Assembly: GCA_028687915.1 (NCBI GenBank)
Contig: JAQTZF010000001.1
Location: forward strand, 930,634 to 994,633
Direction of reading: 5' to 3'
DNA from: Candidatus Daviesbacteria bacterium
Lineage (GTDB): Bacteria > Patescibacteriota > Microgenomatia > Daviesbacterales > UBA10151
DNA: 64,000 nt
Part shown: positions 19,203 through 50,503 of the stretch, piece by piece
Layout of the letters: each line of letters begins with the position of its first letter
Numbering within the stretch: the first letter of the stretch is position 1
Notes under the pieces: model-generated
What the model saw: only the letters and a program-made list of their open reading frames with translations
Databases searched by the model: none
What the model was told of the DNA's origin: nothing
Translations under genes and position numbers: made by a program

Positions 19203-19955
19203 ATGTTACTTGATTCTATATGTCTAATATCAGATAGTATAAAAATGCCTGCCAAAAATTCTATCAAGATATACTGCGAAAATTCTTATTACCATATTTA
19301 CAATCGCGGGGTAGAAAAAAGGCTGATATTCTTGGATGAACAAGATTATAAAGTATTTCTTTCTTATTTAAGGGATTATCTTGTACCAAAAGACGAAAAA
19401 GGGCTTAGAAATATTCTTTCTTCCCCAACCTCTAATTACAAAGAAAAGGCTCAGGCTCTAAAATTAATTCGTCTAAATAATTTTGCAGATGAAATTATTT
19501 TAGTTTCTTATTGCCTTATGCCTAATCACATACATTTTTTAATTAAACAAATATCTAGTAATAGCATTGATAGATTTATGAATTCATTATGTGTCAGATA
19601 TACTATGTATTTTAACCGGAAGTATAAAAGAGTGGGCTCCCTTTATCAGGATGTTTATAAAGCTGTACTTATTGAAAATGATTCACAGCTTTTACACCTT
19701 AGTAAATATATTCACCAAAATCCTCTTAAAAAATTACCCAAATCCAAATTAGCTTCGCAAGGGGACGTCTTACGAGGCTATTATATGCAACCATCATCTC
19801 TTCCTGAATATGATGGGCAAAGACAAACAGAATGGGTACATCCAGAAGAAATATTAGGATTTTTCTCTAAAGAAAATCCCCAACTTTCTTACCAGGCTTT
19901 TGTAGAACAAACAGAGGATCTTCCCCTAATAGAAAATCTAGTTTTAGATTCTTAG
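19203..19955 (+). CDS. IS200-like / Y1 HUH transposase (PF01797-like)
   Basis: HUH motif PNHIHFLI and catalytic-Tyr motif LSKYIHQNP. The start may be the ATG at 19245 (MPAKNS). No TnpB-like partner present. Confidence 0.75.
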   Translation: MLLDSICLISDSIKMPAKNSIKIYCENSYYHIYNRGVEKRLIFLDEQDYKVFLSYLRDYLVPKDEKGLRNILSSPTSNYKEKAQALKLIRLNNFADEIILVSYCLMPNHIHFLIKQISSNSIDRFMNSLCVRYTMYFNRKYKRVGSLYQDVYKAVLIENDSQLLHLSKYIHQNPLKKLPKSKLASQGDVLRGYYMQPSSLPEYDGQRQTEWVHPEEILGFFSKENPQLSYQAFVEQTEDLPLIENLVLDS

Positions 19956-29727: not shown

Positions 29728-30552
29728 TCAACTTTTAATATTTACTGCTTCTACTACATTTTCCATCAAAGAAATAACAGTCATTGGACCAACACCACCT
29801 GGAACCGGGGTAATTCTGGAAGCTTTATGAGCAACAGATTCAAAATCCACATCCCCTACTACTTTTCCATCTACTTTTTCAGCTCCTACATCTATTACGA
29901 TTACATTGTCTTTTACCATATCTCCAGTAATTAACCCTGGAACACCTGTAGCTGAAATTAATATATCAGCTTGTAAAGTACATTCTTTTAAATTAGTAGT
30001 TTTAGTATCACACACTTCCACATTAGCGTTCATTTTTCTTAAGCTTTCTGCTACTGGTTTTCCTACTAAATTACTAGCTCCTACTACTACCACTTTTTTG
30101 CCTTCAACAGAAATATTTTCATCTTCCAAAATAGAAATAACAGATCTGGCTGTAGCTGATAAAAATTTTCCTTTAGTGGTTAGACCATCAACATCTTTTT
30201 CTCCATCAATAAGCTCCAATAATTCACTATCATTTTTGCCTTTTAAAAATTCTTCAGGTAAAGGCAATTGAACCATAATTCCATCCACACTTTCATCCTG
30301 ATTTAGCTCTTCTATTTTAGAACAAACAACTTCCCACTCGACAAGTGGGGAAGCTAAATGAATTGGTTGGAAGTTGATTCCAATCTCAATAGCTTTTTTT
30401 TGCTTGATGTTAGTATATAAAACAGAAGGAGCGTCTTCTCCTATCAAAAAAGAAACCACTTTTGGGGTTTTATTTAAAGTTTTTATAACTTCTTCTAATT
30501 TTTGCTGTCTTAAGAGGGCAAGCTTTCTGCCATCGATTATGTTATCTTCCAT
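29728..30552 (-). CDS. folD: Bifunctional methylene-THF dehydrogenase / methenyl-THF cyclohydrolase
   Basis: VQLPLP motif and NAD(P)-binding GASNLVGKPVA and TGVPGLITGDMVK motifs. Confidence 0.85.
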   Translation of the reverse strand: MEDNIIDGRKLALLRQQKLEEVIKTLNKTPKVVSFLIGEDAPSVLYTNIKQKKAIEIGINFQPIHLASPLVEWEVVCSKIEELNQDESVDGIMVQLPLPEEFLKGKNDSELLELIDGEKDVDGLTTKGKFLSATARSVISILEDENISVEGKKVVVVGASNLVGKPVAESLRKMNANVEVCDTKTTNLKECTLQADILISATGVPGLITGDMVKDNVIVIDVGAEKVDGKVVGDVDFESVAHKASRITPVPGGVGPMTVISLMENVVEAVNIKS

Positions 30553-30599: not shown

Positions 30600-31889
30600 T
30601 TAATTTATCCCTGGAACAGGGAACTTTTCTGCAAATGTTTTTATTTCTGCTCTAATAATTTTTAAGTTTTTATTTGTGTGTAACTTTTTCTTAGTTTCTT
30701 TTAAGAAATCTTTTCTTAAATCCTGTTCCTGTGGTAAATCTAATCCTCTTATTTCTTCCAAAGCCCTTTTTATCCAACCAGCAATTTTAATCATATCTTT
30801 TTCCTTCATTCCTCTGGTGGTTAAAGCAGGAGTACCTAGTCTTATCCCAGAAGGATAAAAAGGAGAGGCAGGTTCACCAGGAATAGTATTTTTATTTACA
30901 GTAATACCTGCTTCTTCCAAAGCATATTGAGCCTGATAACCCATTCCATAACCATAACTGGTCAAAGGCATTAGTACCAGATGAACTTCTGAGGTTGTAT
31001 CTAATTCTTTTGCCAAAACAGCAGCATTTTTTGCAACTTGAGCAGCATATTTTTTAAAAGAAGGCTGTAAAGCTTCTTCTAGAGATACTGCAATAGCAGC
31101 AGTTTGATGATTATGAGGTCCACCCTGTAAACCTGGAATAATTGCTCTTTCAATTTTAGATTTAATTTCCGGATCTTTTTTTAAGCCTCTTTCAGTCACC
31201 ATTACCATAGCTCCTCTTGGACCCCTTAAAGTTTTATGAGTTGTGGTTGTAATAATATCAGCAAAGGGGGCAGGAGATTCATGTACTCCTCCTACAATTA
31301 AACCTGCAATATGAGCAATATCTGCAACCAATGTTGCCCCAACTTTATCTGCAATTTTTCTAAATTTTTTATAATCTAGTTTATAGGGATAAGCTGTTGT
31401 TCCTGCCCAAATTAATTTTGGTTTATGTTTTAGTGCTAAAGCTTCTAGCTCTTCAAAATCTATTTTCCAGTCTTTACCAACATTATAATTAACTGCTTTA
31501 TAAAAAATACTGGAAAAACTTAAATTAGCTCCATGGGTTAAATGCCCTCCTGAAGAAAGAGCTAACCCCATTACGGTATCCCCTGGACTACATACAGCCA
31601 TGGTTACAGCCATATTGGCAGGGGAACCGGAATAAGATTGGACTAAAGCAACCGGCACATTAAATAACTTTTTAGCCAAATCAACTGCATAATTTTCTAT
31701 TTCATCAATCACTTCATTCCCACCATAATACCTTCTGCCAGGAAAACCTTCAGAATATTTATTTGTGAGTATTGAACCAAGTGCTTTTAAAACATCTGAG
31801 GACACATAGTTTTCAGACGGAATCATCTCCAAGCCTGTAACTTGTCTTATCTTTTCTTTTTCAATTAAAGGAAACACCTTGCTTGCCAT
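30600..31889 (-). CDS. glyA: Serine hydroxymethyltransferase
   Basis: PLP-lysine motif TTTTHKTLRGPRG and N-terminal LEMIPSENYVS. Confidence 0.9.
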   Translation of the reverse strand: MASKVFPLIEKEKIRQVTGLEMIPSENYVSSDVLKALGSILTNKYSEGFPGRRYYGGNEVIDEIENYAVDLAKKLFNVPVALVQSYSGSPANMAVTMAVCSPGDTVMGLALSSGGHLTHGANLSFSSIFYKAVNYNVGKDWKIDFEELEALALKHKPKLIWAGTTAYPYKLDYKKFRKIADKVGATLVADIAHIAGLIVGGVHESPAPFADIITTTTHKTLRGPRGAMVMVTERGLKKDPEIKSKIERAIIPGLQGGPHNHQTAAIAVSLEEALQPSFKKYAAQVAKNAAVLAKELDTTSEVHLVLMPLTSYGYGMGYQAQYALEEAGITVNKNTIPGEPASPFYPSGIRLGTPALTTRGMKEKDMIKIAGWIKRALEEIRGLDLPQEQDLRKDFLKETKKKLHTNKNLKIIRAEIKTFAEKFPVPGIN

Positions 31890-31931: not shown

Positions 31932-33509
31932 CTAGTTTATAGTTTCTGAATTAAAGATTTCTGCAGCGATTCTGACAATCTCATCATCAGCTGCTACTTC
32001 TATATTAGATACCTCTTCTCTTTGAACAGGTCTTTTTCCTAAAGCAGTAGCAACCTTAATTTGTCTGCCTAAAATATCTGAAAAAACAGACTCCAATAAA
32101 TCTCTTGATTTTGCAGACTCTAAAATTCTCTGATGAAAAGCATAAGGCACTTCCACTACCACGCTGCTTTCTCCACATTCCAAAATCTTTGATGAACGCA
32201 TCAAAGCTTCAAGTGAAAAGTTATATGCTTTAACAGTTTCCAAAATATAATTCCATCGTTCTGCAATTTTTTGGAGGTCAGAAGAATCTGGATTATCAGA
32301 GTCTTGGAGTGTCTGAGTATCGGCAATTTCAGGTTCACCAACCTGCTGCTCCACCAGCTCTCTGACTTTCTGACTTTCTGTCTCTTGCTGAAGATCGTCA
32401 GATCGCAAGCTCTGCTTATCTGATCTCACCTGCTTCTCTACTCCACAGCTTTCAACTAAAGCAATTTCCAAAGGTAAAATTGGAATTGAAGTATACCTGG
32501 CCTGTTCTAAACTAGTTTGAATGTTATTGATGATAAAAACCACCTGATCAGTTTCAAAACTTGCTGCGATATCACAAAGTTGTTGATATTTTTCTTCACT
32601 ATTTTCTGCTTTAACAAATCTTTCTCCTAATCCATTTTTTATATATAAAATTTGCCTGAGACTATCTAAAAGAGATAATGTTAATTCTTTAATATTTATT
32701 CCAGTTTGAATCTGCTCATTCAACTTATCTAAAACATCAGATGATTTTTTTAGAGAAATACTTTTTAATAGATTTAATGTTTGGCTAAAATCTCCAGAAC
32801 CCAATCCTTCAAGTACTATCTTACTATCAATTTTTTTAAAAGAAGACAATTGGTCTAAAAATTTAATTGCATCACGAAAACTCCCTCCAGCTTTTTTAGC
32901 AAGTGTTAATACTGCCTCTTCATCAATTTCAATCTCTTCTAATGCAGCTGCTTTTTTTATTAACTCTGCAGCTTCTGTGACTGTTGCTTGTTTAAAATCA
33001 ATCCGCGTTACCCGGGATAAAATAGTTGCAGGAATCTTTTGGACTTCCGTAGTCGCTAAAATAAAAATAACATGACTAGGGGGCTCTTCTAGGGTTTTTA
33101 AAAGGGCATTAAATGCATCCCCCGAAAGCATGTGCACCTCATCAATTATGTAGACCTTTTTCTTTAAAGAAGATGCTGCAAGTTTAATAGTATCTTTTAA
33201 ATTTCTAATATCTTCTATACCACGATTGGATGCTGCATCCATTTCAATCACATCCATGTTGGTGCCTTGGGTGATTGATAAACAAGCATCACATCTATTA
33301 CAAGGAATCACACCCTCCTTTGCCTCACAATTAACCATCTTGGCTAAGATTCTGGCAGTAGAAGTTTTACCAGTTCCACGGGGTCCACAAAAAAGATAAG
33401 CATGAGCTAATTTTTGGGCCTTAAAAGCAGATAGTAATGAATTTTTTGCAGTCTGTTGACCAATTAATTCATCAAGGGTTTGTGAGCGATATTTCCTGTA
33501 GAGAACCAT
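31932..33509 (-). CDS. dnaX: DNA polymerase III subunit gamma/tau
   Basis: Walker A GPRGTGKTS, zinc module CNRCDAC, and SRC/sensor motifs (ILATTEVQKIPATILSR). Confidence 0.85.
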   Translation of the reverse strand: MVLYRKYRSQTLDELIGQQTAKNSLLSAFKAQKLAHAYLFCGPRGTGKTSTARILAKMVNCEAKEGVIPCNRCDACLSITQGTNMDVIEMDAASNRGIEDIRNLKDTIKLAASSLKKKVYIIDEVHMLSGDAFNALLKTLEEPPSHVIFILATTEVQKIPATILSRVTRIDFKQATVTEAAELIKKAAALEEIEIDEEAVLTLAKKAGGSFRDAIKFLDQLSSFKKIDSKIVLEGLGSGDFSQTLNLLKSISLKKSSDVLDKLNEQIQTGINIKELTLSLLDSLRQILYIKNGLGERFVKAENSEEKYQQLCDIAASFETDQVVFIINNIQTSLEQARYTSIPILPLEIALVESCGVEKQVRSDKQSLRSDDLQQETESQKVRELVEQQVGEPEIADTQTLQDSDNPDSSDLQKIAERWNYILETVKAYNFSLEALMRSSKILECGESSVVVEVPYAFHQRILESAKSRDLLESVFSDILGRQIKVATALGKRPVQREEVSNIEVAADDEIVRIAAEIFNSETIN

Positions 33510-39733: not shown

Positions 39734-40288
39734 CTAGAGTTCTGTGAGCTCTTTTACTTTATCTTTTCCTAATTCTTCAATAAATACCGTTGATTTTTCA
39801 ATTAATTCTTGTAAAATTTTCTCTCGTCTTTGCCACTCATCTTCCCCAAAAACATCTGCTTCTTTTTCTTGCTCCCATTTAGCTCTGATATCTTGTCTAA
39901 TTTGTCTAAAATTAATTTTTGTTTCTTCTTTTTTAAGATGTACAACTTTAATTAGTTCCTCACGTCTTTCTGCTGTTAAAGGAGGAATTGGTAATCTGAT
40001 AATTGCTCCTTCAAATGAAGGATTTAAACCTAAGTTTGCTTCCTGAATGGCTTTAACAACATTATGCACAATAGAAGCATCCCAAACTTGTACAGTTAAA
40101 AGATTTGGTTGTGGTGCAGAAATATTTGCCACTTCCAATAATTTTAATCTTGTGTCATAAGCTTCTACTGGAATGTTTTCAATAAATGCTGGATTTGCCC
40201 GACCAACTCTAATAGAGGATAGTTCGTGCTTTAAATGTTCAATCGCTGATTGAATTGATGTGTTTGCTTCGTTTAATACTGGATCCAT
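39734..40288 (-). CDS. frr: Ribosome recycling factor
   Basis: 184 aa, with a typical RRF pattern across its length. Confidence 0.9.
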   Translation of the reverse strand: MDPVLNEANTSIQSAIEHLKHELSSIRVGRANPAFIENIPVEAYDTRLKLLEVANISAPQPNLLTVQVWDASIVHNVVKAIQEANLGLNPSFEGAIIRLPIPPLTAERREELIKVVHLKKEETKINFRQIRQDIRAKWEQEKEADVFGEDEWQRREKILQELIEKSTVFIEELGKDKVKELTEL

Positions 40289-40737
40289 TATTCGCCTAGT
40301 TCAATTCTAGCAAATTTTCCAATCTGAATGTTCTCCCCAACTTTACCAATCACTGATTTAACTAAAGCATCAATTGTTTGTGAAGGATCCCGGACATAAT
40401 CTTGTTTTAATAATTTTTCTGTATTTTCAGGATTCATGGATGCAATTTGCAAGGCTATTTCATGAGCTAAATTCTTAAAAGCTTCTGTTTTGGCTACAAA
40501 GTCTGTCTCACAAAGAAGATCTACAACAACTCCAACTTTACCTGCATGTGAATAAACTTCGACTAATCCAGCTTTAACTTCTCTGTCTGCTTTTTTGGCT
40601 GCTTTATCAAAACCTTTTTGTTTGATGATTTCGAGGGCTTTTTTGTAGTCACCTTTTGACTCTGTGAGGGCTTCTTTACAGTCAGCAATTCCAGCTCCTG
40701 TTTCTTCTCTTAACTTTTTTAAATCCTCAATATTCAT
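40288..40737 (-). CDS. tsf: Elongation factor Ts (short form)
   Basis: N-terminal LRE(E)TGAGI(A)DCKEAL UBA-like motif. 149 aa. Its stop overlaps the frr start. Confidence 0.8.
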   Translation of the reverse strand: MNIEDLKKLREETGAGIADCKEALTESKGDYKKALEIIKQKGFDKAAKKADREVKAGLVEVYSHAGKVGVVVDLLCETDFVAKTEAFKNLAHEIALQIASMNPENTEKLLKQDYVRDPSQTIDALVKSVIGKVGENIQIGKFARIELGE

Positions 40738-40746
40738 ATGAGTATT

Positions 40747-41598
40747 TTAAACTATTCTTTCAGAATCTAACACTGCCTTTTTCTCAACTTCTTCTTCTGC
40801 TGCTGCTACTTCTTCAGCAATGTTTGGAGCTACAACCTCTTCTTGCTTCTCAGATTCTTCTTGTTTTTTCAAAGCAATTTTACCAGCAGATTTTAATCCT
40901 TCTGCATAAGCATCAGCAATTGCTTCTGTAATAATTTGGATTGATTTAGAAGCATCATCATTAGCTGGAATTGGATGATTAATTAATAACGGGTTTGAGT
41001 TTGTGTCACAAATTCCTACAATTGGTAAATCAATTCTGATAGCTTCTGCAACTGCTGTACTTTCAGCTACTGTATCAATAATAAAAATAGCATCTGGTAA
41101 TCTATCAAATTTAGCAATACCACCTAATTCATTCTCAAACTTAACTAACTTTTTACTAATTAAAAGTTGTTCTTTTTTTGTGTAATGAGTTAATTCACCT
41201 TTTTCTTGTTTATCTTTAAGATCTAAAAGTTTTTTGATATTTTTTCTGACTTCATCAAAATTAGTTAAAAATCCACCTACCCAACGATAAGTTACATATG
41301 GAGCTCCTGCTCTTTCAGCAAGTTCCTTAACTATTGGCTGAGCCTGCTTTTTAGTACCAAGAAAAAGTAAAACTTTTCCTTCTTTACCTAATTTTTCAAC
41401 ATAATCAATTGCTTCTTTCAGCTTCTTTTCAGATTTTCCCAAATCTATAATATGAACACCATCTCTGACACCATAAATATATTGCTGCATTTTTGGGTGA
41501 CCACGTCGAACTTGATGCCCGAAATGGACACCTGCTTCTAACAATTCTTGTAAGGTTGGTACTTTTGACATGTTTTCCTTCAACTTCTCTACTATCAA
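40747..41598 (-). CDS. rpsB: 30S ribosomal protein S2
   Basis: LLEAGVHFGHQ N-terminal signature and a C-terminal acidic extension. Confidence 0.9.
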   Translation of the reverse strand: MIVEKLKENMSKVPTLQELLEAGVHFGHQVRRGHPKMQQYIYGVRDGVHIIDLGKSEKKLKEAIDYVEKLGKEGKVLLFLGTKKQAQPIVKELAERAGAPYVTYRWVGGFLTNFDEVRKNIKKLLDLKDKQEKGELTHYTKKEQLLISKKLVKFENELGGIAKFDRLPDAIFIIDTVAESTAVAEAIRIDLPIVGICDTNSNPLLINHPIPANDDASKSIQIITEAIADAYAEGLKSAGKIALKKQEESEKQEEVVAPNIAEEVAAAEEEVEKKAVLDSERIV

Positions 41599-41740
41599 CG
41601 AATTCAGGAAAACCTAAATAGTAGATGCTTGATGTGGGTATTTTAGCAATATTTCTTTAATATGACAATAGTGAAGTATGGAACAGCGGTTTGACTAACA
41701 GTTATCAATTATCTATAATCTATAGGCTTAAATTTTAAAT

Positions 41741-42466
41741 ATGGCAAAAGAATGTTTAGCAATTCCAACCGAAATATTAGTTCAGGAAAATATCCTTCCG
41801 GCAAAGCGGAAAAATAAAGCTTTATATATTCCCTTATCCACTATTGGTGGTGTTGAAACTATTTATAATTTAACAGCACAATATGGAGAATACAGAGATA
41901 GAGAAGGTGAACAACCAGTTGAAAAAGATCCTAATTTTCAGCAATTAATTATGTATGCTTTTGTACTTAGAGATAGAAGTTTTTTAGCTTATCAAAGAGG
42001 AAGTCACAAAGAAGGAAATTATGATGAGAGTAGATTAGAAGGTAAGATTTCACTAGGATTAGGAGGTCATATTGAACGCAGTGATTTAACTTTAGAAGAC
42101 TCGCTATATAGAGAAATTGATGAAGAGGCTGAAATATGGATTAATAATGAGCCAATTAATTTTAGACATTCAGATCCTGAATTGGGACCTAAAATTTGGT
42201 CTATGAAAAACTACATTGATATTACTCCTGTAGGTTTGATTAAAGATGAAAGAGATTCGGTTGGAAAAGTTCATTTAGGAATTGCCTGTAGATTAACTAC
42301 AAAACTTAAACAAGCAGATATCAGAGTAAAAACAGGTAGAGAAAGTGTTAGCTACCGGTACCTAACCCCAAAAAAATATCAGCAATTAGTTGAATCCCAT
42401 AAATTAATACCAGAAGGATGGAGTGATATTGTTTTTAGAAATGAAATCTTAACTCCTATCAAATAA
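41741..42466 (+). CDS. Putative Nudix-like hydrolase (divergent Nudix box)
   Basis: LGLGGHIERSDLTLEDSLYREIDEEAEI approximates the Nudix box GX5EX7REUXEEXGU, with non-canonical spacing and G to E in the last position. Confidence 0.4.
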   Translation: MAKECLAIPTEILVQENILPAKRKNKALYIPLSTIGGVETIYNLTAQYGEYRDREGEQPVEKDPNFQQLIMYAFVLRDRSFLAYQRGSHKEGNYDESRLEGKISLGLGGHIERSDLTLEDSLYREIDEEAEIWINNEPINFRHSDPELGPKIWSMKNYIDITPVGLIKDERDSVGKVHLGIACRLTTKLKQADIRVKTGRESVSYRYLTPKKYQQLVESHKLIPEGWSDIVFRNEILTPIK

Positions 42467-44725
42467 TTCAGTACGGCTTAAAGGATTTGGTTCTTTATCC
42501 AATTTTAGACCTGAAAGATAAGGATCTGATTTTGCAATTAGTTGGTTTGCTTTATAAGATAAATCCCGATAATTAATATGACCACCATTCCTAGCTCTTA
42601 AGTGAGTTAAATAAAGTGATTGCTTTGGATCTCCATGCATCCATATATCTGTTTGATGAGCTAATGGTAATAAGTTTAAAACAAAAGAGTAATCAATAGA
42701 ATCTCCATACTTATTATTTACATCATCCACAAACTTATAAAGTTTTTCATAATAATCATCCAAATCCTGTTCAAACTTTTTAGCTATTTTTTCAAATTTA
42801 GGTACTTCTGTAAGATACAATGGTAAACCAAAACCACAACTCATTACTTGCAAAGCTGTATCTATAGTCCAACGTTCTCCATAAATTAAAGGAATAGGAA
42901 TAAATCTTTTATTGGCTCTGTGTCTATTCCAATCACGGACTTCTCCCATAAAACAATTAAGTTCTAATGTCATTCCAGAAGTTCCTGCCCAAAGTGGTAA
43001 TTCCTGATTATGATTGTGTCCTTCAAATAAAATTTCACTAATTTTCTTTTTTATGTTTGGTGTTTGGTTATTAACCCAGTCCAATAATTTCTTCCTATTT
43101 AAACCTGGCCAAATAGTCAAAAGGTATTGAGCAACCATTTTATCTCCTTCGGAGTATTTTTCTGATAACAAGTTAACACCTTGTTTTACTTTTCCTTTAA
43201 GCTTTCTATTAATAGGAACTTCTTCTAAGAAGTTTGTTTCATTTGTTATAAAATTTCGTAAACTTACAATACTATTGTTTGTTATTAATGAAGCCTCACT
43301 GTGTCTGATTAAACTTGGAGCCTCTGCTTTAAATTCTAAACTTTTTTCAATTTCTTTTAATGGAGTAAATAATTGCTCTATTTGAAAACCAACACGATGA
43401 TAAAAAGGAATAGGAGAGCTCTTTAATTGTGAAATTATTCTGGACCAATCTCTTGCAGAAGTATCAAGAGATAAGCCACTACATGCTCCCAGTGGCAAAA
43501 AGAATCTTACACAATCCATAACCCTTGAATTTAAAGCTCCTTTGTCATTATCTCCCGGTTTATAGAATTTTTCAAAAGCCGCCAAAATCTGATCTTTATG
43601 GGAAGCATAAAGATCCAGAGCGAGTTTACCAAAAGACTGATATGTATCTTCCAAATTTGCTAATTCTTCTGATGGAAAATCATCTGGTAAATAATTTCTA
43701 ATTGGATGCAAAGCAGCATCTTTAAATTTTGATTGGTATCTGCTTGATTTCTCCTGACCCGCATTTACTGCAGCATTGTTAAATAATGCTAAACATAAAT
43801 GCATCGGGGTATTATGTGTACTAATTTCCAGGTGAGCCATATCCCCTACAGATTTATGTCCATAATTTCTAAACATTTCATCAAGTTTTTGATCTGGATC
43901 TACACCCTTTTCCCCCATTTCATACATTATTTCCCAGGGAGCTCCAGGAGCTCTGGAATGCCTGGCTCCGGCCCAAGCTCTATGAGCTGCAGTTCTATTC
44001 TTTGAATTGGCAATGGTGGTTGTAATTACCACCCCTGTGATTTTATCCTCTAAACAAACAAGCCTCAACCCTGTGTCTTTTTCCGAATAAACAAACCATT
44101 TAAAGTCATCTTTTTCCAGCTCTTTCTCAGGTTGTGGATTCTTTAAAAAACTATCAGTAACTAAATTTATAATATCTAAATGTACTTCTTCCGGAGTTCT
44201 TGTGGCATAAACTTTTTTCCAACCATATCTGGCTCCTAGTTCTAGATGTATTCGCTGACCCTTTTCCCAAATCTCATCATCTGCTTCATTGCGATGATTT
44301 TTTTCTATACCGCTTACAAATCTTTCTCCATGTAATAAAATTGCTAAATCTTCTTTTAATAATTTTTTATTTATTTTCTCCAAAGCCTCAAGGGGTACAC
44401 CCCAGGTCATACCCCATGCTACTCCTGTACCAGTATAATCTTCTGCTAATACCCACTTACCTGCATTTAAATATGACTTAAGTTTTGGTTCAAAATCTGC
44501 TCTATTTTGAGCATAAAGTTTTTGCAAATCTAAATCTGGCATTTTTAAACCCTCTCGCAAAACTGCATTTATTTTTGGTCCGGTTGGTTTTAAATCATAA
44601 ATTGGATATTTTAAGCGGATAGTCTTAATACCTTTTTCCTGTAAGGATTTTTCAAGTAATTCAACTTGTTTTGATTTACCTAAATTATTTGCTCCGTATA
44701 AAACAATAAATTTACCTTTTTTCAT
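42449..44725 (-). CDS. thyX: Fusion protein: N-terminal Tmk-like P-loop kinase domain plus two tandem ThyX (Thy1, flavin-dependent thymidylate synthase)-like domains
   Basis: P-loop LYGANNLGKS with Tmk-like layout. ThyX-like domain 1 (about aa 200-430) has HKSVGDMAHLEISTH...AGQEKSSRY and RVMDCVRFFLPLG...SARDWSRI, keeps S..RY but has NNA in place of RHR. ThyX-like domain 2 (about aa 560-758) has TLELNCFMGEVRDWNRHR and LNLLPLAHQTDIWMHGDPKQSLYLTHLRA, keeps RHR but lacks SxRY. By-eye alignment to T. maritima ThyX. Confidence 0.55.
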   Translation of the reverse strand: MKKGKFIVLYGANNLGKSKQVELLEKSLQEKGIKTIRLKYPIYDLKPTGPKINAVLREGLKMPDLDLQKLYAQNRADFEPKLKSYLNAGKWVLAEDYTGTGVAWGMTWGVPLEALEKINKKLLKEDLAILLHGERFVSGIEKNHRNEADDEIWEKGQRIHLELGARYGWKKVYATRTPEEVHLDIINLVTDSFLKNPQPEKELEKDDFKWFVYSEKDTGLRLVCLEDKITGVVITTTIANSKNRTAAHRAWAGARHSRAPGAPWEIMYEMGEKGVDPDQKLDEMFRNYGHKSVGDMAHLEISTHNTPMHLCLALFNNAAVNAGQEKSSRYQSKFKDAALHPIRNYLPDDFPSEELANLEDTYQSFGKLALDLYASHKDQILAAFEKFYKPGDNDKGALNSRVMDCVRFFLPLGACSGLSLDTSARDWSRIISQLKSSPIPFYHRVGFQIEQLFTPLKEIEKSLEFKAEAPSLIRHSEASLITNNSIVSLRNFITNETNFLEEVPINRKLKGKVKQGVNLLSEKYSEGDKMVAQYLLTIWPGLNRKKLLDWVNNQTPNIKKKISEILFEGHNHNQELPLWAGTSGMTLELNCFMGEVRDWNRHRANKRFIPIPLIYGERWTIDTALQVMSCGFGLPLYLTEVPKFEKIAKKFEQDLDDYYEKLYKFVDDVNNKYGDSIDYSFVLNLLPLAHQTDIWMHGDPKQSLYLTHLRARNGGHINYRDLSYKANQLIAKSDPYLSGLKLDKEPNPLSRTELFDRS

Positions 44726-45156
44726 TTGTGACCTGTACTACCAAAACCTCCCCTATCAGTTTTTTTTATCTCATCAACTTCTTCCCATTCTGCGATTTCA
44801 ACTGGTACAAAAATACCCTGACCAATTCTTTCTCCTCTTTCTACTACAGTTTCTTCATCAGTAATATTGTAAACAGCTAAGTTATATTCATCAGTTGGAC
44901 CACAAAAATCCTGATCACCAATCCCCACCCCATTTGCCTTAATTAATCCTTTCTTAAAAGGAGCTGAGCTTCTTAGTGTAATTAAAAACATATAACCTTT
45001 TGGAGTTCCAATAATTATATTTGTTGGAATTTTCACCAAAGTTTTAGGAGGAACTACAGTTGTAATTCTGGCATACAAATCACAACCCACTGAACCATCT
45101 GTTTGATATTTTGGTAAGGGCAGTTCTTTATCAATCCGCGTAATTTTAACTTTCAT
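44722..45156 (-). CDS. dut: dUTP diphosphatase
   Basis: dUTPase motifs (DGSVGCDLYA, RSS, GxIDxDYRG-like FKKGLIKANGVGIGDQDF). Its stop overlaps the start of the downstream fusion gene. Confidence 0.85.
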   Translation of the reverse strand: MKVKITRIDKELPLPKYQTDGSVGCDLYARITTVVPPKTLVKIPTNIIIGTPKGYMFLITLRSSAPFKKGLIKANGVGIGDQDFCGPTDEYNLAVYNITDEETVVERGERIGQGIFVPVEIAEWEEVDEIKKTDRGGFGSTGHK

Positions 45157-45221
45157 AATTTTGTCCTCAAAATTTCAAGCTTTGCTTAAGACCGGAGGTC
45201 GCAAGCTTTGCTTATTTCAAA

Positions 45222-45851
45222 CTATTTTTTAAAGTTTTTCCAATACTGGCTTGCCATTGGTTTTGGGTTTTTTGAAAATTCATTAATATATTTACTTTTT
45301 AAAGCTGCACTACCATAACAATTTTCTGCTTCACAAGTAAGTGCAGAAAATCTAACTTGACCAATTGGCATGTCTGGATAAATTAAAAGTGGCTGGTCAG
45401 TAAGATTAGTAATTTCTAAAGTAACATGACCAGAAAATCCCGGATCAATAAAACCTGCTGTTGCATGAATAACAAGTCCCAATCTACCTAAGCTACTTTT
45501 TCCTTCTACATTTGCTAAAAGTTGTGATGGTAAATGAAGCCATTCTGAAGTTACTCCTAAAATAAATTCATGTGGATGTAACATACCTCCTTTATTTAAA
45601 TCCAAAACCTCATATTCCAAATACTGATCAACAGGTTTTTTTAAATCTATCACTGCATCTTTATTTCTGCGTCTCGCAAAAACCATTATTGTCTTTGCTA
45701 AGTGAAGATCAATTGAAGATGGTTGAATATTCAAATCTTTATTAGGCTTAACTTCTAAATACCCTTCTTTTATTGCTAACTTAATATCTCTATCAGATAA
45801 TACAGCTCCGCCTTGTTGTAGAAAAGTTAAATTTTTATTATTCATACTCAA
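45222..45851 (-). CDS. dcd: dCTP deaminase
   Basis: N-terminal LSDRDIKLAIKEG and QPSSIDLHL; C-terminal trimeric dUTPase-like fold motifs. Confidence 0.85.
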   Translation of the reverse strand: MSMNNKNLTFLQQGGAVLSDRDIKLAIKEGYLEVKPNKDLNIQPSSIDLHLAKTIMVFARRRNKDAVIDLKKPVDQYLEYEVLDLNKGGMLHPHEFILGVTSEWLHLPSQLLANVEGKSSLGRLGLVIHATAGFIDPGFSGHVTLEITNLTDQPLLIYPDMPIGQVRFSALTCEAENCYGSAALKSKYINEFSKNPKPMASQYWKNFKK

Positions 45852-45887
45852 TTTATTAAACTAATTTAGACAGTCTGAGATATTTTT

Positions 45888-46457
45888 TCAAGTAGTCAAT
45901 TTAGTTAAAATATCATTCAGCTTTTGTTGGAACTCTTCTGGTGTGCCTTCATTAATAATATGGAACTCTGCTCTTTCCATACATTTTTCAACATTCATTC
46001 CGAAATTTTCTGAATCATTCTTCTCTGCTTCTAAAAAGCTTTCCCAGGTAATTGGATCAGATCTTCCATCTAAAGCTCTTTGCTTTATTCTTTCAAATCT
46101 TATTTTTTGATCAGCCTCTATTGCAACAAGGTGAAAATTTGGTAATTTTTGTAAGTATTCTATTTCACCTAAACTGCGTACCCCATCAATTATGGCTTTT
46201 TCTGTATGCTGTTCTTTTATAATTTCCCAAGCCCTGCTAGCTAAAATTGACGACCCAAATTTTTCTCTTAATTCTCCTCCGGTTTCTGCTAATCGTTCGC
46301 GGGTTATATCTAAACCTCTTTTTTTAATTTCTTCCCTGATTTGGTCAGAAAGCGAAAAAGAAACAAATCCATGCTTTTCTACTAAATATTTAGCAGCTTC
46401 TCCTTTACCTGAACAAATCTGTCCTACAAACCCGATGACTATTTTAGAATTACTCAT
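45888..46457 (-). CDS. P-loop nucleoside/nucleotide kinase (dephospho-CoA-kinase/dNMP-kinase-like fold)
   Basis: Walker A GFVGQICSGKGEAAKYL and lid-like RxxxR/GRSD motifs. Its start overlaps the pyrG stop, suggesting translational coupling. Confidence 0.5.
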   Translation of the reverse strand: MSNSKIVIGFVGQICSGKGEAAKYLVEKHGFVSFSLSDQIREEIKKRGLDITRERLAETGGELREKFGSSILASRAWEIIKEQHTEKAIIDGVRSLGEIEYLQKLPNFHLVAIEADQKIRFERIKQRALDGRSDPITWESFLEAEKNDSENFGMNVEKCMERAEFHIINEGTPEEFQQKLNDILTKLTT

Positions 46458-48064
46458 TTCTTAATTTTACTGGCAGCTTTAACAAATCCTGTAAATAAAG
46501 GATGCGGTTGCAAAGGACGGGATTTTAATTCTGGATGAAATTGAGTTCCAATAAAAAATGGATGGTCTTTTAATTCTATAATTTCAACTAATTTACCATC
46601 AGGTGAAGTCCCTGCAATAACCAAGCCATTATTTTCCAGTTCCTGCTTATATTTATTATTAAACTCATATCGGTGACGGTGACGTTCACTAATTCTTTGT
46701 TTTCCATAAAGGCTTTTTGATATTGTTTTATTTTGCAAAACACAATCCCACGCCCCAAGTCTCATAGTCCCACCATAATTTTTTTCCAACAACTTTTTTT
46801 CTTGGTCTGGCATGATATGGATAACTGGATATTTGGTCTTAGAATTTATTTCTGTGGTATTTGCATTTGTAAAATCTAAGACATTTCTGGCAAATTCTAC
46901 TACTGCCAATTGCATTCCATAACATAATCCAAGGTAGGGAATTTTGTTTTCTCTACAATATTTAATTGTTTCTATTTTTCCTTCAATATCCCTTGAACCA
47001 AATCCACCTGGAACAATAATCCCTTGAAAATTTTTTAATAGACTTATATCTTTTTCAACTTTCCCTGCATCAATCCATTCTATTTCAGGTTTATATCCTA
47101 CTGTGTAGGCAGCATGTTTAAGTGCTTCAATTACTGAAATATATGCATCAGACAAAACACCATTACCACTGGAAAAATACTTTCCAACAATTCCAATTTT
47201 TATAGGTACTTTTGCAATTTCAACACTATGGACAAATTCCCGCCATTTTGCCAAATCCGTCTTTTTCCTTTTCAAATTTAATTTTTCTAAAATCCTATCT
47301 GTCAATTTACAAGCTTCAAAATTTAATGGTACTTCATAAACATTTTTTACATCAGGCGCTGGAATAATATCCTCTGGTTCTATTCCAGTATTAAAAGATA
47401 ATCTTTTAGCACGGGGAGCATCTATAGATTCTGTTGATCTTGCAAGTAAAATATCAGGCTGAATACCAACGGAATGTAAATCACGAACAGACATTTGAGC
47501 TGGCTTGCTCTTCATCTCACCTAAAAATGATGGTACTGGCAAATATGTTACATGAATATGTACAACTTCATTTTGTTTTTTAAGTTTTAATAGCCTATTT
47601 GCTTCAAGAAATAATACATTTTGATATTCACCAGTAGTTCCACCAATTTCTACAACAACTATGTCTGCATTATTAGCTTTCCCAGCCAATTGAATGCGTT
47701 CAATAATTTCCTGAGTTACATTATGAATATCAACATAGTCTCCCTCATATTCCAGGTTTCGTTCTTTTTGGATAACTGTTAAATAAATACTTCCTTGGGT
47801 AGCAATATTTGTGGAATTTAAACTTTCACCTAAGTATCTTTCATAATGCCCTAAGTCTTGGTCAGCTTCTTTACCATCATCAAGAACAAATGTTTCACCA
47901 TGAGCAAGCGGATTCATAGTTCCTGCATCAACATTTAAATAAGGATCCATTTTTAAAGGGACTACTTTATAACCAGCTGCTTTTAAAAGAAGGGCTATGG
48001 AAGCAGTTGCAATTCCTTTTCCTATTCCAGATATCACACCACCACTAACAAAAATATATTTCAT
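46454..48064 (-). CDS. pyrG: CTP synthase
   Basis: N-terminal synthetase domain (FVSGGVISGIGKG) and C-terminal GATase (GLCYGMQL, HPE). Confidence 0.9.
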   Translation of the reverse strand: MKYIFVSGGVISGIGKGIATASIALLLKAAGYKVVPLKMDPYLNVDAGTMNPLAHGETFVLDDGKEADQDLGHYERYLGESLNSTNIATQGSIYLTVIQKERNLEYEGDYVDIHNVTQEIIERIQLAGKANNADIVVVEIGGTTGEYQNVLFLEANRLLKLKKQNEVVHIHVTYLPVPSFLGEMKSKPAQMSVRDLHSVGIQPDILLARSTESIDAPRAKRLSFNTGIEPEDIIPAPDVKNVYEVPLNFEACKLTDRILEKLNLKRKKTDLAKWREFVHSVEIAKVPIKIGIVGKYFSSGNGVLSDAYISVIEALKHAAYTVGYKPEIEWIDAGKVEKDISLLKNFQGIIVPGGFGSRDIEGKIETIKYCRENKIPYLGLCYGMQLAVVEFARNVLDFTNANTTEINSKTKYPVIHIMPDQEKKLLEKNYGGTMRLGAWDCVLQNKTISKSLYGKQRISERHRHRYEFNNKYKQELENNGLVIAGTSPDGKLVEIIELKDHPFFIGTQFHPELKSRPLQPHPLFTGFVKAASKIKK

Positions 48065-48205
48065 AATTTCAATTACAAAACTTAAAATTGAAATTTCAAG
48101 CTCTGCTTATATAAACAATTTGGAGAATCCTAAAATGGGTAGTTTTTTAGGCCCTAACTATAATTACTGTTTTTGGGGTTTGATGTCAATGGGGATAATT
48201 AAAAA

Positions 48206-48490
48206 TTATGAAAAAAGGCTTAACCGACTAGGGTGCATTCCCTTAATCTGATTTTCAGCAGCCTCACGTTGCATCTGTGCTTTAATCTTAGCTGCTTCTA
48301 CAGGATCTACACTTTCTATTTGTGGTAGTCGCGGACAAAAATCATTTACTCTAGAGTGCAAAGTTGTAGGGCTGTTTGCATCATCTGTTATCATCTTTCT
48401 CTCTTTACCAAAGATATCATCAAACCCTGTTTCATTGGCAGAACCTGAAGAATCGCCGCTTGCTTCATAACCTAATGAATTTTCTATCAT
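48206..48490 (-). CDS. Hypothetical small protein (94 aa) between topA and pyrG
   Basis: Co-directional and tightly spaced after topA, with no motifs assigned. Confidence 0.3.
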   Translation of the reverse strand: MIENSLGYEASGDSSGSANETGFDDIFGKERKMITDDANSPTTLHSRVNDFCPRLPQIESVDPVEAAKIKAQMQREAAENQIKGMHPSRLSLFS

Positions 48491-48523
48491 TAATTAATTG
48501 ATAGTATATCCCGTAGTATCTTG

Positions 48524-50503
48524 TCAACTATCTGCTTTTTTGGGTTTCGTCCATGAAGCAAACTTACAATTTGGCCAATTTCTACATCCATAAAAAGGCC
48601 TGCCTTTTTTAGTTTTTCTCATTACTATCTCACCACCACAATCAGGACAAATAGCATCAACAGCCTGTTCATAACTTTCTGTATGTTTACAATCCGGAAA
48701 ACCAGAACACGCTAAAAACTTACCAAATTTACCAAACTTAATCACTAACTTCTTACCACATTCAGGACAATCTTTATCTGTTTCTTCAGCAATAACTTTT
48801 ACTCTCTCAGCTTCTCCTTCTACTTTTTCTAACTTTTCAGCAAAGGGCTTATAAAAACTGGAAATAATTGGTTTCCATTGTTTCTCACCAGTAGCAATAG
48901 AATCGAGATTATCTTCCATCTCTGCAGTAAAAGTATAATCAAAAATATCTGGGAAATATTTCATTAAAAAATTATTTACAGTTATCCCAAGCTCAGTTGG
49001 AAAAAATTTCTTTTCTCTTTTTTCAACATAATATCTATCCTGAATAGTAGATAAAATAGGTGCATAAGTTGAAGGTCTGCCAATACCCAACTCTTCCAAC
49101 TTTTTAATTAAAGAAGCCTCATTAAATCTGGGAGGTGGTTCTGTAAAATGCTGGTTTGGTAAAAGTGTAAGCAAACTTAAGCTTTCATTCTCTTTTAATT
49201 CTGGTAATGATTGTGAATCTTTTTCTCCTTCTTCTTCCTCTTCTATAACTTTTCCAAAAACTTTTAACCACCCATCAAATTTAATAGTACTTCCAGTTGC
49301 TCTAAACAAATATGAGCTTGCAGCAGTTACATCCACCGAAGTTTGATCCATCACAGCTTCGCTCATTTGAGAAGCCATCATTCTTTTCCAAATAAGTTCA
49401 TATACCCTTATATAATCGCGTGTCATCCCCTCTGATGTTTTTAAAGTTTCACCAGTCACATTTATATTAGTAGGTCTGATTGCCTCATGAGCTTCCTGAG
49501 CTACTTTTGATTTTGTTTTATAAACTCTGGCAGATTGTGGCACATAATTTTTTCCAAAATTTGTTTCAATATAACTTCTGGCTTGAGATATAGCTTGAGT
49601 AGATAAATTAACTGAATCTGTTCTCATATAGGTAATTAACCCATGCTCATATAATGTTTGAGCAATCATCATTGTTTTTTTAGCACTCATGCCTAAACGA
49701 TTAGATGATGTTTGCTGTAAAGTTGAGGTGGTAAATGGAGGAGCGGGAAATTTTCTAACTTCTTTTTTGGCAATTCTTGAAATTTTATATTCTGCTGCTT
49801 CTAAGGCTTTAACATGATTATTTGCTTCGATTTGATTATTTATTACTAATTTTTTACCATCTTTTTCAATGAGGTTTGCAATAAAATGTCCTGCACCGGA
49901 CTTAAGGTCTGCTTCAATGGACCAATATTCAACAGCTTTAAATGCATTTACTTCTGCTTCACGCTCTACAATTAAACGTAATGCAACAGACTGAACTCTT
50001 CCCGCAGATAATCCGGATTTAACTTTTCTCCATAAGAGAGGGGATAATTTATAACCTACTATTCTATCTAAAACTCTTCTGGCTTGTTGGGCATCTACCA
50101 ACCTTAAGTCAACTTCTCTGGGATCCTCAAAAGCCTCCTTAATAGCACTTTCTGTAATTTCATGAAAAGCTACCCGGGATGTAGGAATCTTTGCCATTCC
50201 CTTGCTTTCTGTTAAAAGATACTGCAAATGCCAGGCAATTGCTTCTCCTTCACGGTCAGGGTCTGTTGCTAACCATAAATTTTCTGCTGTTTTAGCAATT
50301 TTTTTTAACTCATTAACTTTTTTAACTTTATCTCTTGGAACAACATATTTTGGTTCAAAATTATTTTCGGTGTCAATTCCTAATTCTGATTTTGGTAAAT
50401 CTCTGATATGACCCATTGAAGCTTCCACGCGATAATCGCTTCCAAGATATTTGGAAAGAGTTCTGGCTTTGGTTGGTGACTCAACAATAACTAAATTTTT
50501 CAT
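48524..50503 (-). CDS. topA: DNA topoisomerase I
   Basis: Toprim (IVESPTKA), catalytic Tyr region (LITYMRTDS), and two C-terminal C4 zinc ribbons (CPECGKKLVIKFGKFGKFLACSGFPDC; CPDCGGEIVMRKTKKGRPFYGCRNWPNC). Confidence 0.9.
   Translation of the reverse strand: MKNLVIVESPTKARTLSKYLGSDYRVEASMGHIRDLPKSELGIDTENNFEPKYVVPRDKVKKVNELKKIAKTAENLWLATDPDREGEAIAWHLQYLLTESKGMAKIPTSRVAFHEITESAIKEAFEDPREVDLRLVDAQQARRVLDRIVGYKLSPLLWRKVKSGLSAGRVQSVALRLIVEREAEVNAFKAVEYWSIEADLKSGAGHFIANLIEKDGKKLVINNQIEANNHVKALEAAEYKISRIAKKEVRKFPAPPFTTSTLQQTSSNRLGMSAKKTMMIAQTLYEHGLITYMRTDSVNLSTQAISQARSYIETNFGKNYVPQSARVYKTKSKVAQEAHEAIRPTNINVTGETLKTSEGMTRDYIRVYELIWKRMMASQMSEAVMDQTSVDVTAASSYLFRATGSTIKFDGWLKVFGKVIEEEEEGEKDSQSLPELKENESLSLLTLLPNQHFTEPPPRFNEASLIKKLEELGIGRPSTYAPILSTIQDRYYVEKREKKFFPTELGITVNNFLMKYFPDIFDYTFTAEMEDNLDSIATGEKQWKPIISSFYKPFAEKLEKVEGEAERVKVIAEETDKDCPECGKKLVIKFGKFGKFLACSGFPDCKHTESYEQAVDAICPDCGGEIVMRKTKKGRPFYGCRNWPNCKFASWTKPKKADS

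Follow-up and report, generated by a model that had tools for sequence, protein, structure and literature searches.

Do five adjoining genes of pyrimidine nucleotide metabolism in a bacterium of the Candidatus Daviesbacteria (Patescibacteriota; Microgenomatia) serve a single pathway, and what would the two unfamiliar members of the set, a small P-loop kinase and a long protein fused from two enzymes, do in it? The genes lie in a stretch of 64,000 nucleotides of contig JAQTZF010000001.1 (assembly GCA_028687915.1, positions 930,634 to 994,633 of the forward strand), hereafter called the window, in which five co-directional minus-strand open reading frames (ORFs) at 42449-48064 correspond to pyrG, a kinase of 189 amino acids (aa), dcd, dut and a 758-aa tmk-thyX fusion (Table 1), at the positions where a first-pass annotation had placed them. 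On comparison with related loci, we consider it likely that they constitute a housekeeping operon for pyrimidine deoxynucleotides, a candidate seated in a conserved slot between topA and the genes rpsB-tsf-frr. That its products would supply dTMP and dTDP is well supported by the family assignments and the gene order.

The identities first proposed for three of the products, CTP synthase, dCTP deaminase and dUTPase, agree with their scores in Pfam and NCBIfam. PyrG satisfies the CTP synthase models (674 bits against TIGR00337, whose cut-off is 462.75, and 681 bits against NF003792) and is 77% identical to its orthologue at a related locus, L001, and Dcd exceeds the cut-off of the dCTP deaminase equivalog (TIGR02274, 159.7 bits for a cut-off of 92.8) and reaches 149 bits against Pfam DCD. 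Dut scores 65.1 bits against Pfam dUTPase (cut-off 22) and lies slightly under the NCBIfam cut-offs (101.6 for 103 and 100 for 102.55), with all five dUTPase motifs legible in its sequence. The gene set for the series dCTP to dUTP to dUMP to dTMP to dTDP, which had been claimed for the cluster, is therefore present on paper, by family assignment. The claimed 4-nt overlaps also exist, the pyrG stop with the kinase start at 46454-46457 and the dut stop with the fusion start at 44722-44725, both of them ATGA, and such junctions are supported by the sequence as tight enough to permit translational coupling. The kinase and dcd are separated by 36 nt, or by 42 nt if dcd begins with the ATG at 45845, the likelier choice, since the L001 orthologue begins there and so does the gene called on contig L007; the spacer between dcd and dut measures 65 nt.

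Table 1. Position of the operon genes, protein domains, sequence signals and associated genes in the window
Feature	Position	Strand	Basis or remark
pyrG, CTP synthase, 536 aa	46454-48064	-	TIGR00337, Pfam CTP_synth_N and GATase
189-aa P-loop NMP-kinase-like protein (UPF0200-related)	45888-46457	-	Pfam AAA_17/AAA_18
dcd, dCTP deaminase	45222-45851 (TTG start, 209 aa) or 45845 (ATG start, 207 aa)	-	
dut, trimeric-type dUTPase, 144 aa	44722-45156	-	Pfam dUTPase
tmk-thyX fusion ORF, 758 aa	42449-44725	-	
Fusion, N-terminal thymidylate-kinase-family domain, aa 1-195	44141-44725	-	Pfam Thymidylate_kin, PDB thymidylate kinases
Fusion, junction/linker, aa ~196-207, ...FLKN-PQPEKEL...	44105-44140	-	Comparison with the unfused locus L008
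Fusion, first ThyX-fold domain, aa ~201-500 (boundary approximate)	43226-44125	-	Pfam Thy1, hhalign
Fusion, second ThyX-fold domain, aa ~501-758 and stop	42449-43225	-	Profile against solved ThyX, hhalign
Promoter-like site TTGACA-18 nt-AATTAT, 10/12 matches	48160-48189	-	Consensus match only
18-nt motif AAGCAGAGCTTGAAATTT in the pyrG 5' leader	48091-48108	-	
dcd-dut spacer cassette: hairpin 45176-45214, 18-nt motif 45170-45187, GAGGA ribosome-binding site	45157-45221	-	
glyA	30600-31889	-	tblastn with Woesebacteria GlyA, 59% identity
folD	29728-30552	-	tblastn with Woesebacteria FolD; Pfam THF_DHG_CYH
Nudix-fold-like gene, 241 aa	41741-42466	+	Overlaps the fusion 3' end by 18 nt (42449-42466)
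94-aa ORF between topA and pyrG	48206-48490		141-nt spacer to pyrG

The surroundings of the operon are informative. It is flanked on one side by rpsB, tsf, frr and rseP and, at a greater distance, by a tRNA synthetase, trigger factor, YqeY and YbeY, and on the other by topA, a ClpB-like ATPase, DprA, PBP2 and MreC. A scan of genome contigs with a single sequence returned one locus, and comparative synteny, which had been suggested as a check, bore the cluster out. Locus L001 (CAZDEH010000021.1) is syntenic with the window over 10 kb, with topA, pyrG, kinase, dcd, dut and a 759-aa fusion in the same order, three 4-nt overlaps and proteins that are 48-83% identical (75% for topA); it was deposited as 'uncultured Gammaproteobacteria' and is probably mis-binned. 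In L008 pyrG, kinase, dcd and dut are followed by a separate 196-aa tmk (86% identical), a gap of 35 nt and a long thyX. Between topA and rpsB, L009, also of the Daviesbacteria, has pyrG, a 267-aa gene, a dCMP deaminase gene, the kinase, dut, tmk and a ThyA-family gene (243 aa, 26.9 bits in Pfam for a cut-off of 24.3), and the same slot is occupied in Woesebacteria (L002-L004) by dcd, two unrelated genes, a long thyX, a nucleoside deoxyribosyltransferase gene, tmk, tdk, glyA and folD. Among 55 metagenome loci encoding long ThyX that were fetched for context, three contigs resembling those of the Candidate Phyla Radiation (CPR), namely L045, L048 and L050, have the long thyX linked to pyrG, dcd, dut, tmk or glyA. 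Since the five-gene order is repeated in L001 and variants of it recur in L008, L009, L045, L048 and L002, the arrangement is not due to chance, and a dTMP-supply cluster kept between topA and rpsB is a conserved feature and the norm within Microgenomates. The cluster had been described as unusual for bacteria, which holds in comparison with model bacteria (in E. coli these genes are scattered), but not within this group.

L009 also displays gene replacement in place, because a dCMP deaminase stands there for Dcd and a ThyA-like gene occupies the slot of the long thyX, and no other comparative evidence speaks so strongly for the long ThyX being the thymidylate synthase here. According to a published analysis, Patescibacteria can obtain thyA by horizontal transfer (PMC12455944). 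Two further genes of the same locus (L009, 5339-9596), of 267 and 163 aa, have no Pfam match; the position of the second would, as a speculation, suit a dihydrofolate reductase acting as the partner of ThyA.

Internal promoters or terminators had been named as signals that might separate the genes, and a scan of the sequence for sigma-70 promoters and intrinsic terminators inside the operon gave no convincing instance, the promoter-like sites being at the level of shuffled sequence (39 found, 39.5 expected). The best candidate for the operon promoter is the promoter-like site in the spacer between the 94-aa ORF and pyrG, and a clearer TTGACA-17-TATATT is present ahead of pyrG in L001 and L009. 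A single uninterrupted transcript is likely, judging from the sequence. The pyrG leader contains as well an 18-nt motif, AAGCARAGCTTGAAATTT, with a second copy ahead of dut and an identical 18-mer in the pyrG leader of L009 (3610-3627), downstream of the clear promoter. The motif was rejected as a promoter, given that the L009 copy is downstream of one and the dut copy lies 13 nt from the start codon, and a 12-nt copy of its core at 32406-32417, inside a coding region, was treated as chance. Ahead of dut the motif forms part of a cassette with a hairpin (minimum free energy -17.3 kcal/mol, z -1.7), which alone is not significant. A near-verbatim version with hairpin, motif, GAGGA and ATG precedes an unrelated gene (MKILITGGAGF...) in L045 (10040-10113), where the changes in the hairpin keep most pairs; L001 and L008, in which dcd and dut overlap or sit 6 nt apart, lack the cassette. 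A search of positions 41000-49000 against Rfam revealed no known RNA family. The cassette could be a processing or attenuation site, and its recurrence ahead of another gene raises the idea that it may be a portable element of 5' untranslated regions or of processing.

The 189-aa kinase matches only generic P-loop models in Pfam (AAA_17/AAA_18). Over its whole length it can be aligned with SSO1041, an archaeal UPF0200 protein that is uncharacterised (PDB 3h0k and 3lw7; E=4e-14), and its 97.6 bits against NF006226 (UPF0200/PRK08356 family), for a cut-off of 189, make it homologous to the curated family and place it outside. Other matches are to phrog_139, 'dNMP kinase' (E=7e-15), and further phage kinase families, to the kinase part of the PADLOC dCTPase model (E=6e-22), to the anti-phage dCTP deaminase model NF041025 (E=3e-14; 52.8 bits for a cut-off of 400, over the kinase part only and with no fused deaminase) and, weakly, to models of adenylate, UMP-CMP and archaeal CMP kinases. 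Among the relatives of the kinase, G17, K18, R64, R94, R123 and R127 are invariant and R41 is nearly so; from their positions, we take the invariant arginines to be the NMP-site and lid arginines of nucleoside monophosphate (NMP) kinases. The gene adjoins one for a cytosine deaminase, either Dcd or dCMP deaminase, in every Daviesbacteria locus seen, and relatives in other bacteria are N-terminal to a fused dCMP deaminase. Our best guess is that it encodes a candidate pyrimidine (deoxy)nucleoside monophosphate ((d)NMP) kinase for (d)CMP and/or UMP, and the earlier idea of a (d)CMP/UMP kinase is, on these matches, plausible and somewhat strengthened. It would be unlikely, by comparison, that the protein is a dephospho-CoA kinase (a CoaE analogue) or some other small-molecule kinase merely located in the operon. 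The automatic Joint Genome Institute (JGI) name of two of its relatives is 'dephospho-CoA kinase', the orthologue in L009 matches CoaE weakly and under the threshold (20.7 bits for 27), and the solved relatives (SSO1041, UPF0200) are without an assigned function; but the dephospho-CoA kinase identity, which had been put forward as a refuting outcome, is not supported by the family models, since neither PF01121 of Pfam nor the coaE model of NCBIfam matches the protein of the window at E<=0.01, its better matches are the nucleotide kinases, phage dNMP kinases and anti-phage kinase part listed above, and it is paired with a cytosine deaminase in every Daviesbacteria locus seen and fused to dCMP deaminase in other bacteria.

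Both the UPF0200 or 'AdkA-like' archaeal proteins and the kinase domain of anti-phage dCTP deaminases align end to end with the window kinase, and the anti-phage dCTP deaminases share with the relatives of the kinase a C-terminal dCMP-deaminase domain. Unlike the defence proteins, however, the window kinase stands alone, belongs to a housekeeping operon and is paired with a Dcd of dUTPase fold instead of a zinc deaminase, and it scores under every curated cut-off. A literature search yielded no biochemically assigned substrate for any member of the UPF0200-like kinase family. Five of the fused relatives (P0132, P0133, P0135, P0137 and P0138) are of ~330 aa, two of them shorter or partial, with the UPF0200-like kinase N-terminal and the zinc dCMP deaminase C-terminal, an architecture shorter than the anti-phage dCTP deaminase model of ~437 positions; the gene surroundings of two fused proteins (L066 and L067) were examined and are ordinary and uninformative.

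In bacteria, pyrH is commonly located between tsf and frr. In the window these two genes abut, sharing base 40288 (39734-40737), with no pyrH between them, as is also the case in L002 and L009, and the UMP kinase may lie elsewhere in the genome or be replaced. Among the ORFs scanned, a part of those of the 64-kb window (20 mostly kinase-sized ones and the ten that flank the operon), none was pyrH, cmk, adk, ndk or coaE.

The fusion protein is identical to PHQ59_05250, annotated 'hypothetical protein' in a metagenome-assembled genome of Candidatus Daviesbacteria. Its larger part had been named ThyX, and the fold is indeed that of ThyX, but the moiety is not a plain ThyX, being a tandem of ~560 aa from a poorly annotated family. 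Canonical ThyX is a subunit of ~220-250 aa that forms a homotetramer in which each active site is built from three subunits (PMC5954106, PMC6514825). In the window protein, Pfam Thy1 (PF02511) is recognised at aa 279-433, in the first domain (35.7 bits for a cut-off of 24.8). With a profile of 20 close homologues, no ThyX was retrieved from the PDB, an AlphaFold 2 model from this shallow alignment was poor (mean predicted local distance difference test, pLDDT, 67) and left Foldseek without matches, and hhalign of the two halves was not significant. With a deeper profile (A2), built on a 40-sequence alignment that includes distant members of the family, the second half matched solved ThyX structures (PBCV-1 2cfa, E=2.4e-10; M. 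tuberculosis 2af6 and 3gwc), hhalign aligned both halves with PBCV-1 ThyX (E=8.8e-5 for the first and 8.5e-9 for the second), and the halves aligned with each other over the last motif (E=6e-5). The model of the whole ThyX region from the same alignment reached a pLDDT of 93.7 and a predicted TM-score of 0.92, and all of the 50 best PDB matches in Foldseek were ThyX or PolB (probability 1.0, target-normalised TM-score 0.52-0.68). Among viral structures the best match, over the full length, was a protein of Microcystis phage LMM01 (491 aa, annotated 'thymidylate synthase', phrog_36506; E=1.5e-27, TM-score 0.77/0.87, 25% identity), the family phrog_36506, 'thymidylate synthase', matched the ThyX part with E=2e-43, and distant members of 500-530 aa, which carry the JGI name ThyX, contain two Thy1 stretches. 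The C-terminal ~560 aa are, by profile comparison and structural modelling, a tandem of two ThyX-fold domains.

The two domains differ in the residues that they conserve. H290, S292, S327-x-R329-Y, R401, D404 and R407 are conserved in the first, and the second keeps R601-H602-R603 and R710, so the signature RHR...S-x-R-Y is split, the RHR occurring in the second domain only and the S-x-R-Y in the first only, and the register of the motif in the first domain is ambiguous in hhalign. By analogy with the multi-subunit site of the canonical enzyme, this suggests a covalent pseudo-dimer with specialised halves. Canonical ThyX (TM0449, M. tuberculosis, PBCV-1 A674R) has a fold common to each half and shares RHR and LR...H with the second domain, and the reaction expected here, dUMP to dTMP, is predicted to be the same, whereas the window protein has two domains with unequal conserved residues in a chain of ~560 aa and an attached Tmk. 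A literature search did not find a description of a two-domain ThyX.

An exhaustive profile search showed that the long ThyX family comprises 850 clusters, mostly of 500-650 aa, and the LMM01 protein and the bacterial 'ThyX' of 500-530 aa belong to the same hidden Markov model family as the window ThyX. The subfamily of the window (~576 aa; Microgenomates and Ktedonobacteria), annotated as hypothetical, is nevertheless only 23-31% identical to these distant members. The listed homologues of the ThyX part have ~565-604 aa and 53-78% identity and come from Woesebacteria, Ktedonobacteria and Dictyobacter, most of them being labelled 'hypothetical'. The chlamydial ThyX, an active enzyme of ~530 aa, may also be a member of the long family. 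Identity of the Microgenomates proteins to those of Ktedonobacteria and Dictyobacter is 53-57%, as against 57% to those of Woesebacteria (L005, L006 and most of L011-L065), and this near equality suggests a transfer of the long ThyX between Chloroflexota and CPR.

The N-terminal part of the fusion is a member of the thymidylate kinase family, with a Thymidylate_kin match at aa 11-185 (Pfam PF02223, 45.4 bits for a cut-off of 27), an alignment with solved thymidylate kinases in the PDB (E=8e-11) and the P-loop GANNLGKS at aa 11-18 (G-x-N-N-L-G-K-S). It belongs to a CPR-wide family of stand-alone proteins of ~196 aa (472 matches), the closest of which (86-87% identical) are unfused. A role as a dTMP kinase is supported by its constant position beside dut and a thymidylate synthase gene. 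P-loop, structural alignment, Pfam score and gene position are shared with Tmk, while the subfamily is specific to CPR and is here fused to ThyX. The segment A-E-D-Y (fusion aa 94-97, window 44435-44446) is common to the whole Tmk-like subfamily of CPR (Daviesbacteria, Shapirobacteria, Uhrbacteria and others), and the Tmk beside the long thyX of Woesebacteria (L002) has NRF at the corresponding DR(Y/H/F) position.

Several observations tell against the interpretation of the cluster as an operon for dTMP and dTDP supply. The Tmk domain lies under the NCBIfam dTMP-kinase equivalog TIGR00041 (36.5 bits for 83.25), and EDY at aa 95-97 replaces DR(Y/H/F), so that the arginine is gone. The first ThyX domain is without the RHR triad, and TIGR02170, the thyX model of NCBIfam, has no match at E<=1 for the window protein and its close relatives of the ~576-aa subfamily, which explains their 'hypothetical' labels; the distant long members reach 35-52 bits for a cut-off of 87.9. 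ThyX-fold enzymes with other substrates exist, and one of them, PolB, which methylates UMP/dUMP, appears in the list of structural matches. None of the dTMP-pathway genes tested was near the long thyX in Ktedonobacteria-like metagenome loci, where the gene stands alone, and neither the Dictyobacter locus nor one further contig gave it informative neighbours. Finally, the conserved hairpin cassette in the dcd-dut spacer could split the operon. Taken together, the points on the ThyX part would allow the tandem to be another flavin-dependent methylase or hydroxymethylase of pyrimidine C5, acting on UMP or dCMP, for instance for modified bases or a secondary metabolite. We regard this as decidedly improbable, as the gene directly follows dut, the producer of dUMP, and is fused or adjacent to tmk, the consumer of dTMP; its exact slot is taken by a ThyA-family gene in L009; it clusters with tmk, tdk, glyA and folD in Woesebacteria; and its phage homologues are annotated as thymidylate synthase.

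The likeness of the kinase to the kinase domain of anti-phage dCTP deaminases, together with the presence of long ThyX, dNMP kinases and phrog_8902 in phages, could also be explained if the cluster were a mobile, phage-derived or anti-phage module for nucleotide depletion. That is highly improbable in our view: the GC content of the operon (0.33) is the same as that of the rest of the 64-kb window, the slot between topA and rpsB-tsf-frr is maintained in several Microgenomates genomes, no integrase or other mobility gene is nearby, the kinase falls far short of the threshold of the defence family and has no fused deaminase, and the enzymes form a biosynthetic series and not a depletion device.

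The origin of the fusion can be followed by comparison with L008. A deletion of ~100 nt that kept the frame took the tmk stop, the spacer of 35 nt and, from the poorly conserved N-terminus of thyX, ~22 codons, and joined ...FLKN to PQPEKEL... The same junction is present in the 759-aa fusion of L001 (83% identical), and a separate Logan contig carries an ORF identical to that of the window. An assembly or sequencing artefact, such as a lost stop between genes that are really separate, is hardly credible, for while close relatives (tmk 86-87% identical) do have a separate 196-aa tmk, the junction is a deletion and no point change, and it recurs on the Logan contig and in L001, a second genome from another study. 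The fusion is rare. Among the matches listed, all 119 other homologues (119/119) cover only the last ~74% of it (73-75%); no other match listed among 5.8 billion proteins covers both the Tmk and the ThyX parts; and no extension of the size of Tmk occurs in the best 150 of the 850 clusters of the long ThyX family. When metagenomes were scanned with the peptide of the fusion junction, nothing matched, and the fusion therefore looks confined to two genomes. It arose recently, by in-frame deletion. The literature, when searched for Tmk-ThyX fusions, for CT632, for UPF0200 and for UMP kinase in CPR, gave no usable information. The bifunctional dihydrofolate reductase-thymidylate synthase of protozoa is a precedent for fusing consecutive enzymes of the dTMP cycle, and it likewise joins sequential enzymes, but these are reductase and synthase, whereas those of the window are synthase and kinase.

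A scheme for the operon can be proposed from these assignments. The promoter-like site upstream of pyrG would probably drive a polycistronic mRNA, on which the ATGA overlaps would couple translation of pyrG to that of the kinase, and of dut to that of the fusion. PyrG would convert UTP to CTP; ribonucleotide reduction, for which the cluster has no gene, would come next, and Dcd would take dCTP to dUTP and Dut would take dUTP to dUMP. The tandem ThyX would then form dTMP from dUMP in a flavin-dependent reaction with methylenetetrahydrofolate, by analogy with canonical ThyX, and the fused Tmk domain would convert dTMP to dTDP, two consecutive enzymes being contained in one polypeptide, between which the intermediate might be channelled. 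The methylenetetrahydrofolate could be supplied by GlyA and FolD, whose genes stand side by side 11-13 kb from the operon and lie inside the thyX cluster in Woesebacteria. The kinase most likely phosphorylates salvaged (d)CMP and/or UMP, which would feed the pool of CTP and dCTP. Gram-negative bacteria use the dcd-dut route to dUMP, and the chemistry from dCTP through dUTP and dUMP to dTMP would be the same as in the window cluster. A bolder proposal is that the fusion is a bifunctional dUMP-to-dTDP enzyme in which the ThyX active-site residues are divided between domains and a dimer mimics the tetramer with half the sites, and that the UPF0200-type kinase replaces PyrH or Cmk in Microgenomates. 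We regard this combination as tentative and rather unlikely; the replacement of PyrH/Cmk would fit the fact that pyrH is missing from its usual position between tsf and frr.

Two ORFs border the operon. The Nudix-like gene at 41741 does adjoin the operon, as had been noticed, but it is convergent and not divergent. The Nudix label is appropriate only in the sense of a weak likeness (17.3 bits against Pfam NUDIX for a cut-off of 21.1), the segment REIDEEAEI being merely box-like and not a canonical Nudix box. Its relatives are the uncharacterised TM1382 of T. maritima (PDB 3e57, E=1e-4) and phrog_8902, a phage family with no assigned function (E=3e-22). The gene is absent from the corresponding position in L001, L008 and L009 and, by this comparison, is neither part of the operon nor a conserved partner of it. 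This convergent gene contains a terminator-like hairpin on the operon strand (41791-41816, minus), with a promoter-like site for rpsB (41640-41668, minus) a short way downstream of the hairpin; transcripts that continue past the end of the operon would be antisense to the entire Nudix-like gene. The 94-aa ORF between topA and pyrG has no match in Pfam, NCBIfam or PHROGs and no counterpart in L001, and it may not be a real gene. Elsewhere in the window, the ORF at 19203-19955 (250 aa) has a Y1 transposase domain of the IS200-like kind.

The pathway is a textbook one and no known biochemistry is overturned, and it is the arrangement that is uncommon and lineage-specific. What is new here is a lineage-specific operon whose genes are replaced in place, a rare fusion of Tmk with ThyX, membership in a large and poorly annotated family of double-domain ThyX and a suggestive context for an orphan kinase. 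In this genome, as in many Microgenomates and Ktedonobacteria, the predicted thymidylate synthase goes under the label 'hypothetical protein' and is unseen by the NCBI thyX model, and automated metabolic reconstructions may in consequence miss dTMP synthesis in these organisms. The in-place swaps of Dcd with dCMP deaminase and of long ThyX with a ThyA-like protein assign, by context, a function to genes that had not been recognised. A covalently duplicated ThyX with unequal domains provides a natural test of the number of active sites that the enzyme needs, to which the fusion with Tmk adds a rare pairing of synthase and kinase. For the orphan family of UPF0200-like P-loop proteins, which is also the source of the kinase domain of anti-phage dCTP deaminases, the window kinase offers a concrete hypothesis, and a role as stand-in for PyrH or Cmk, if true, would be the first function given to this family.

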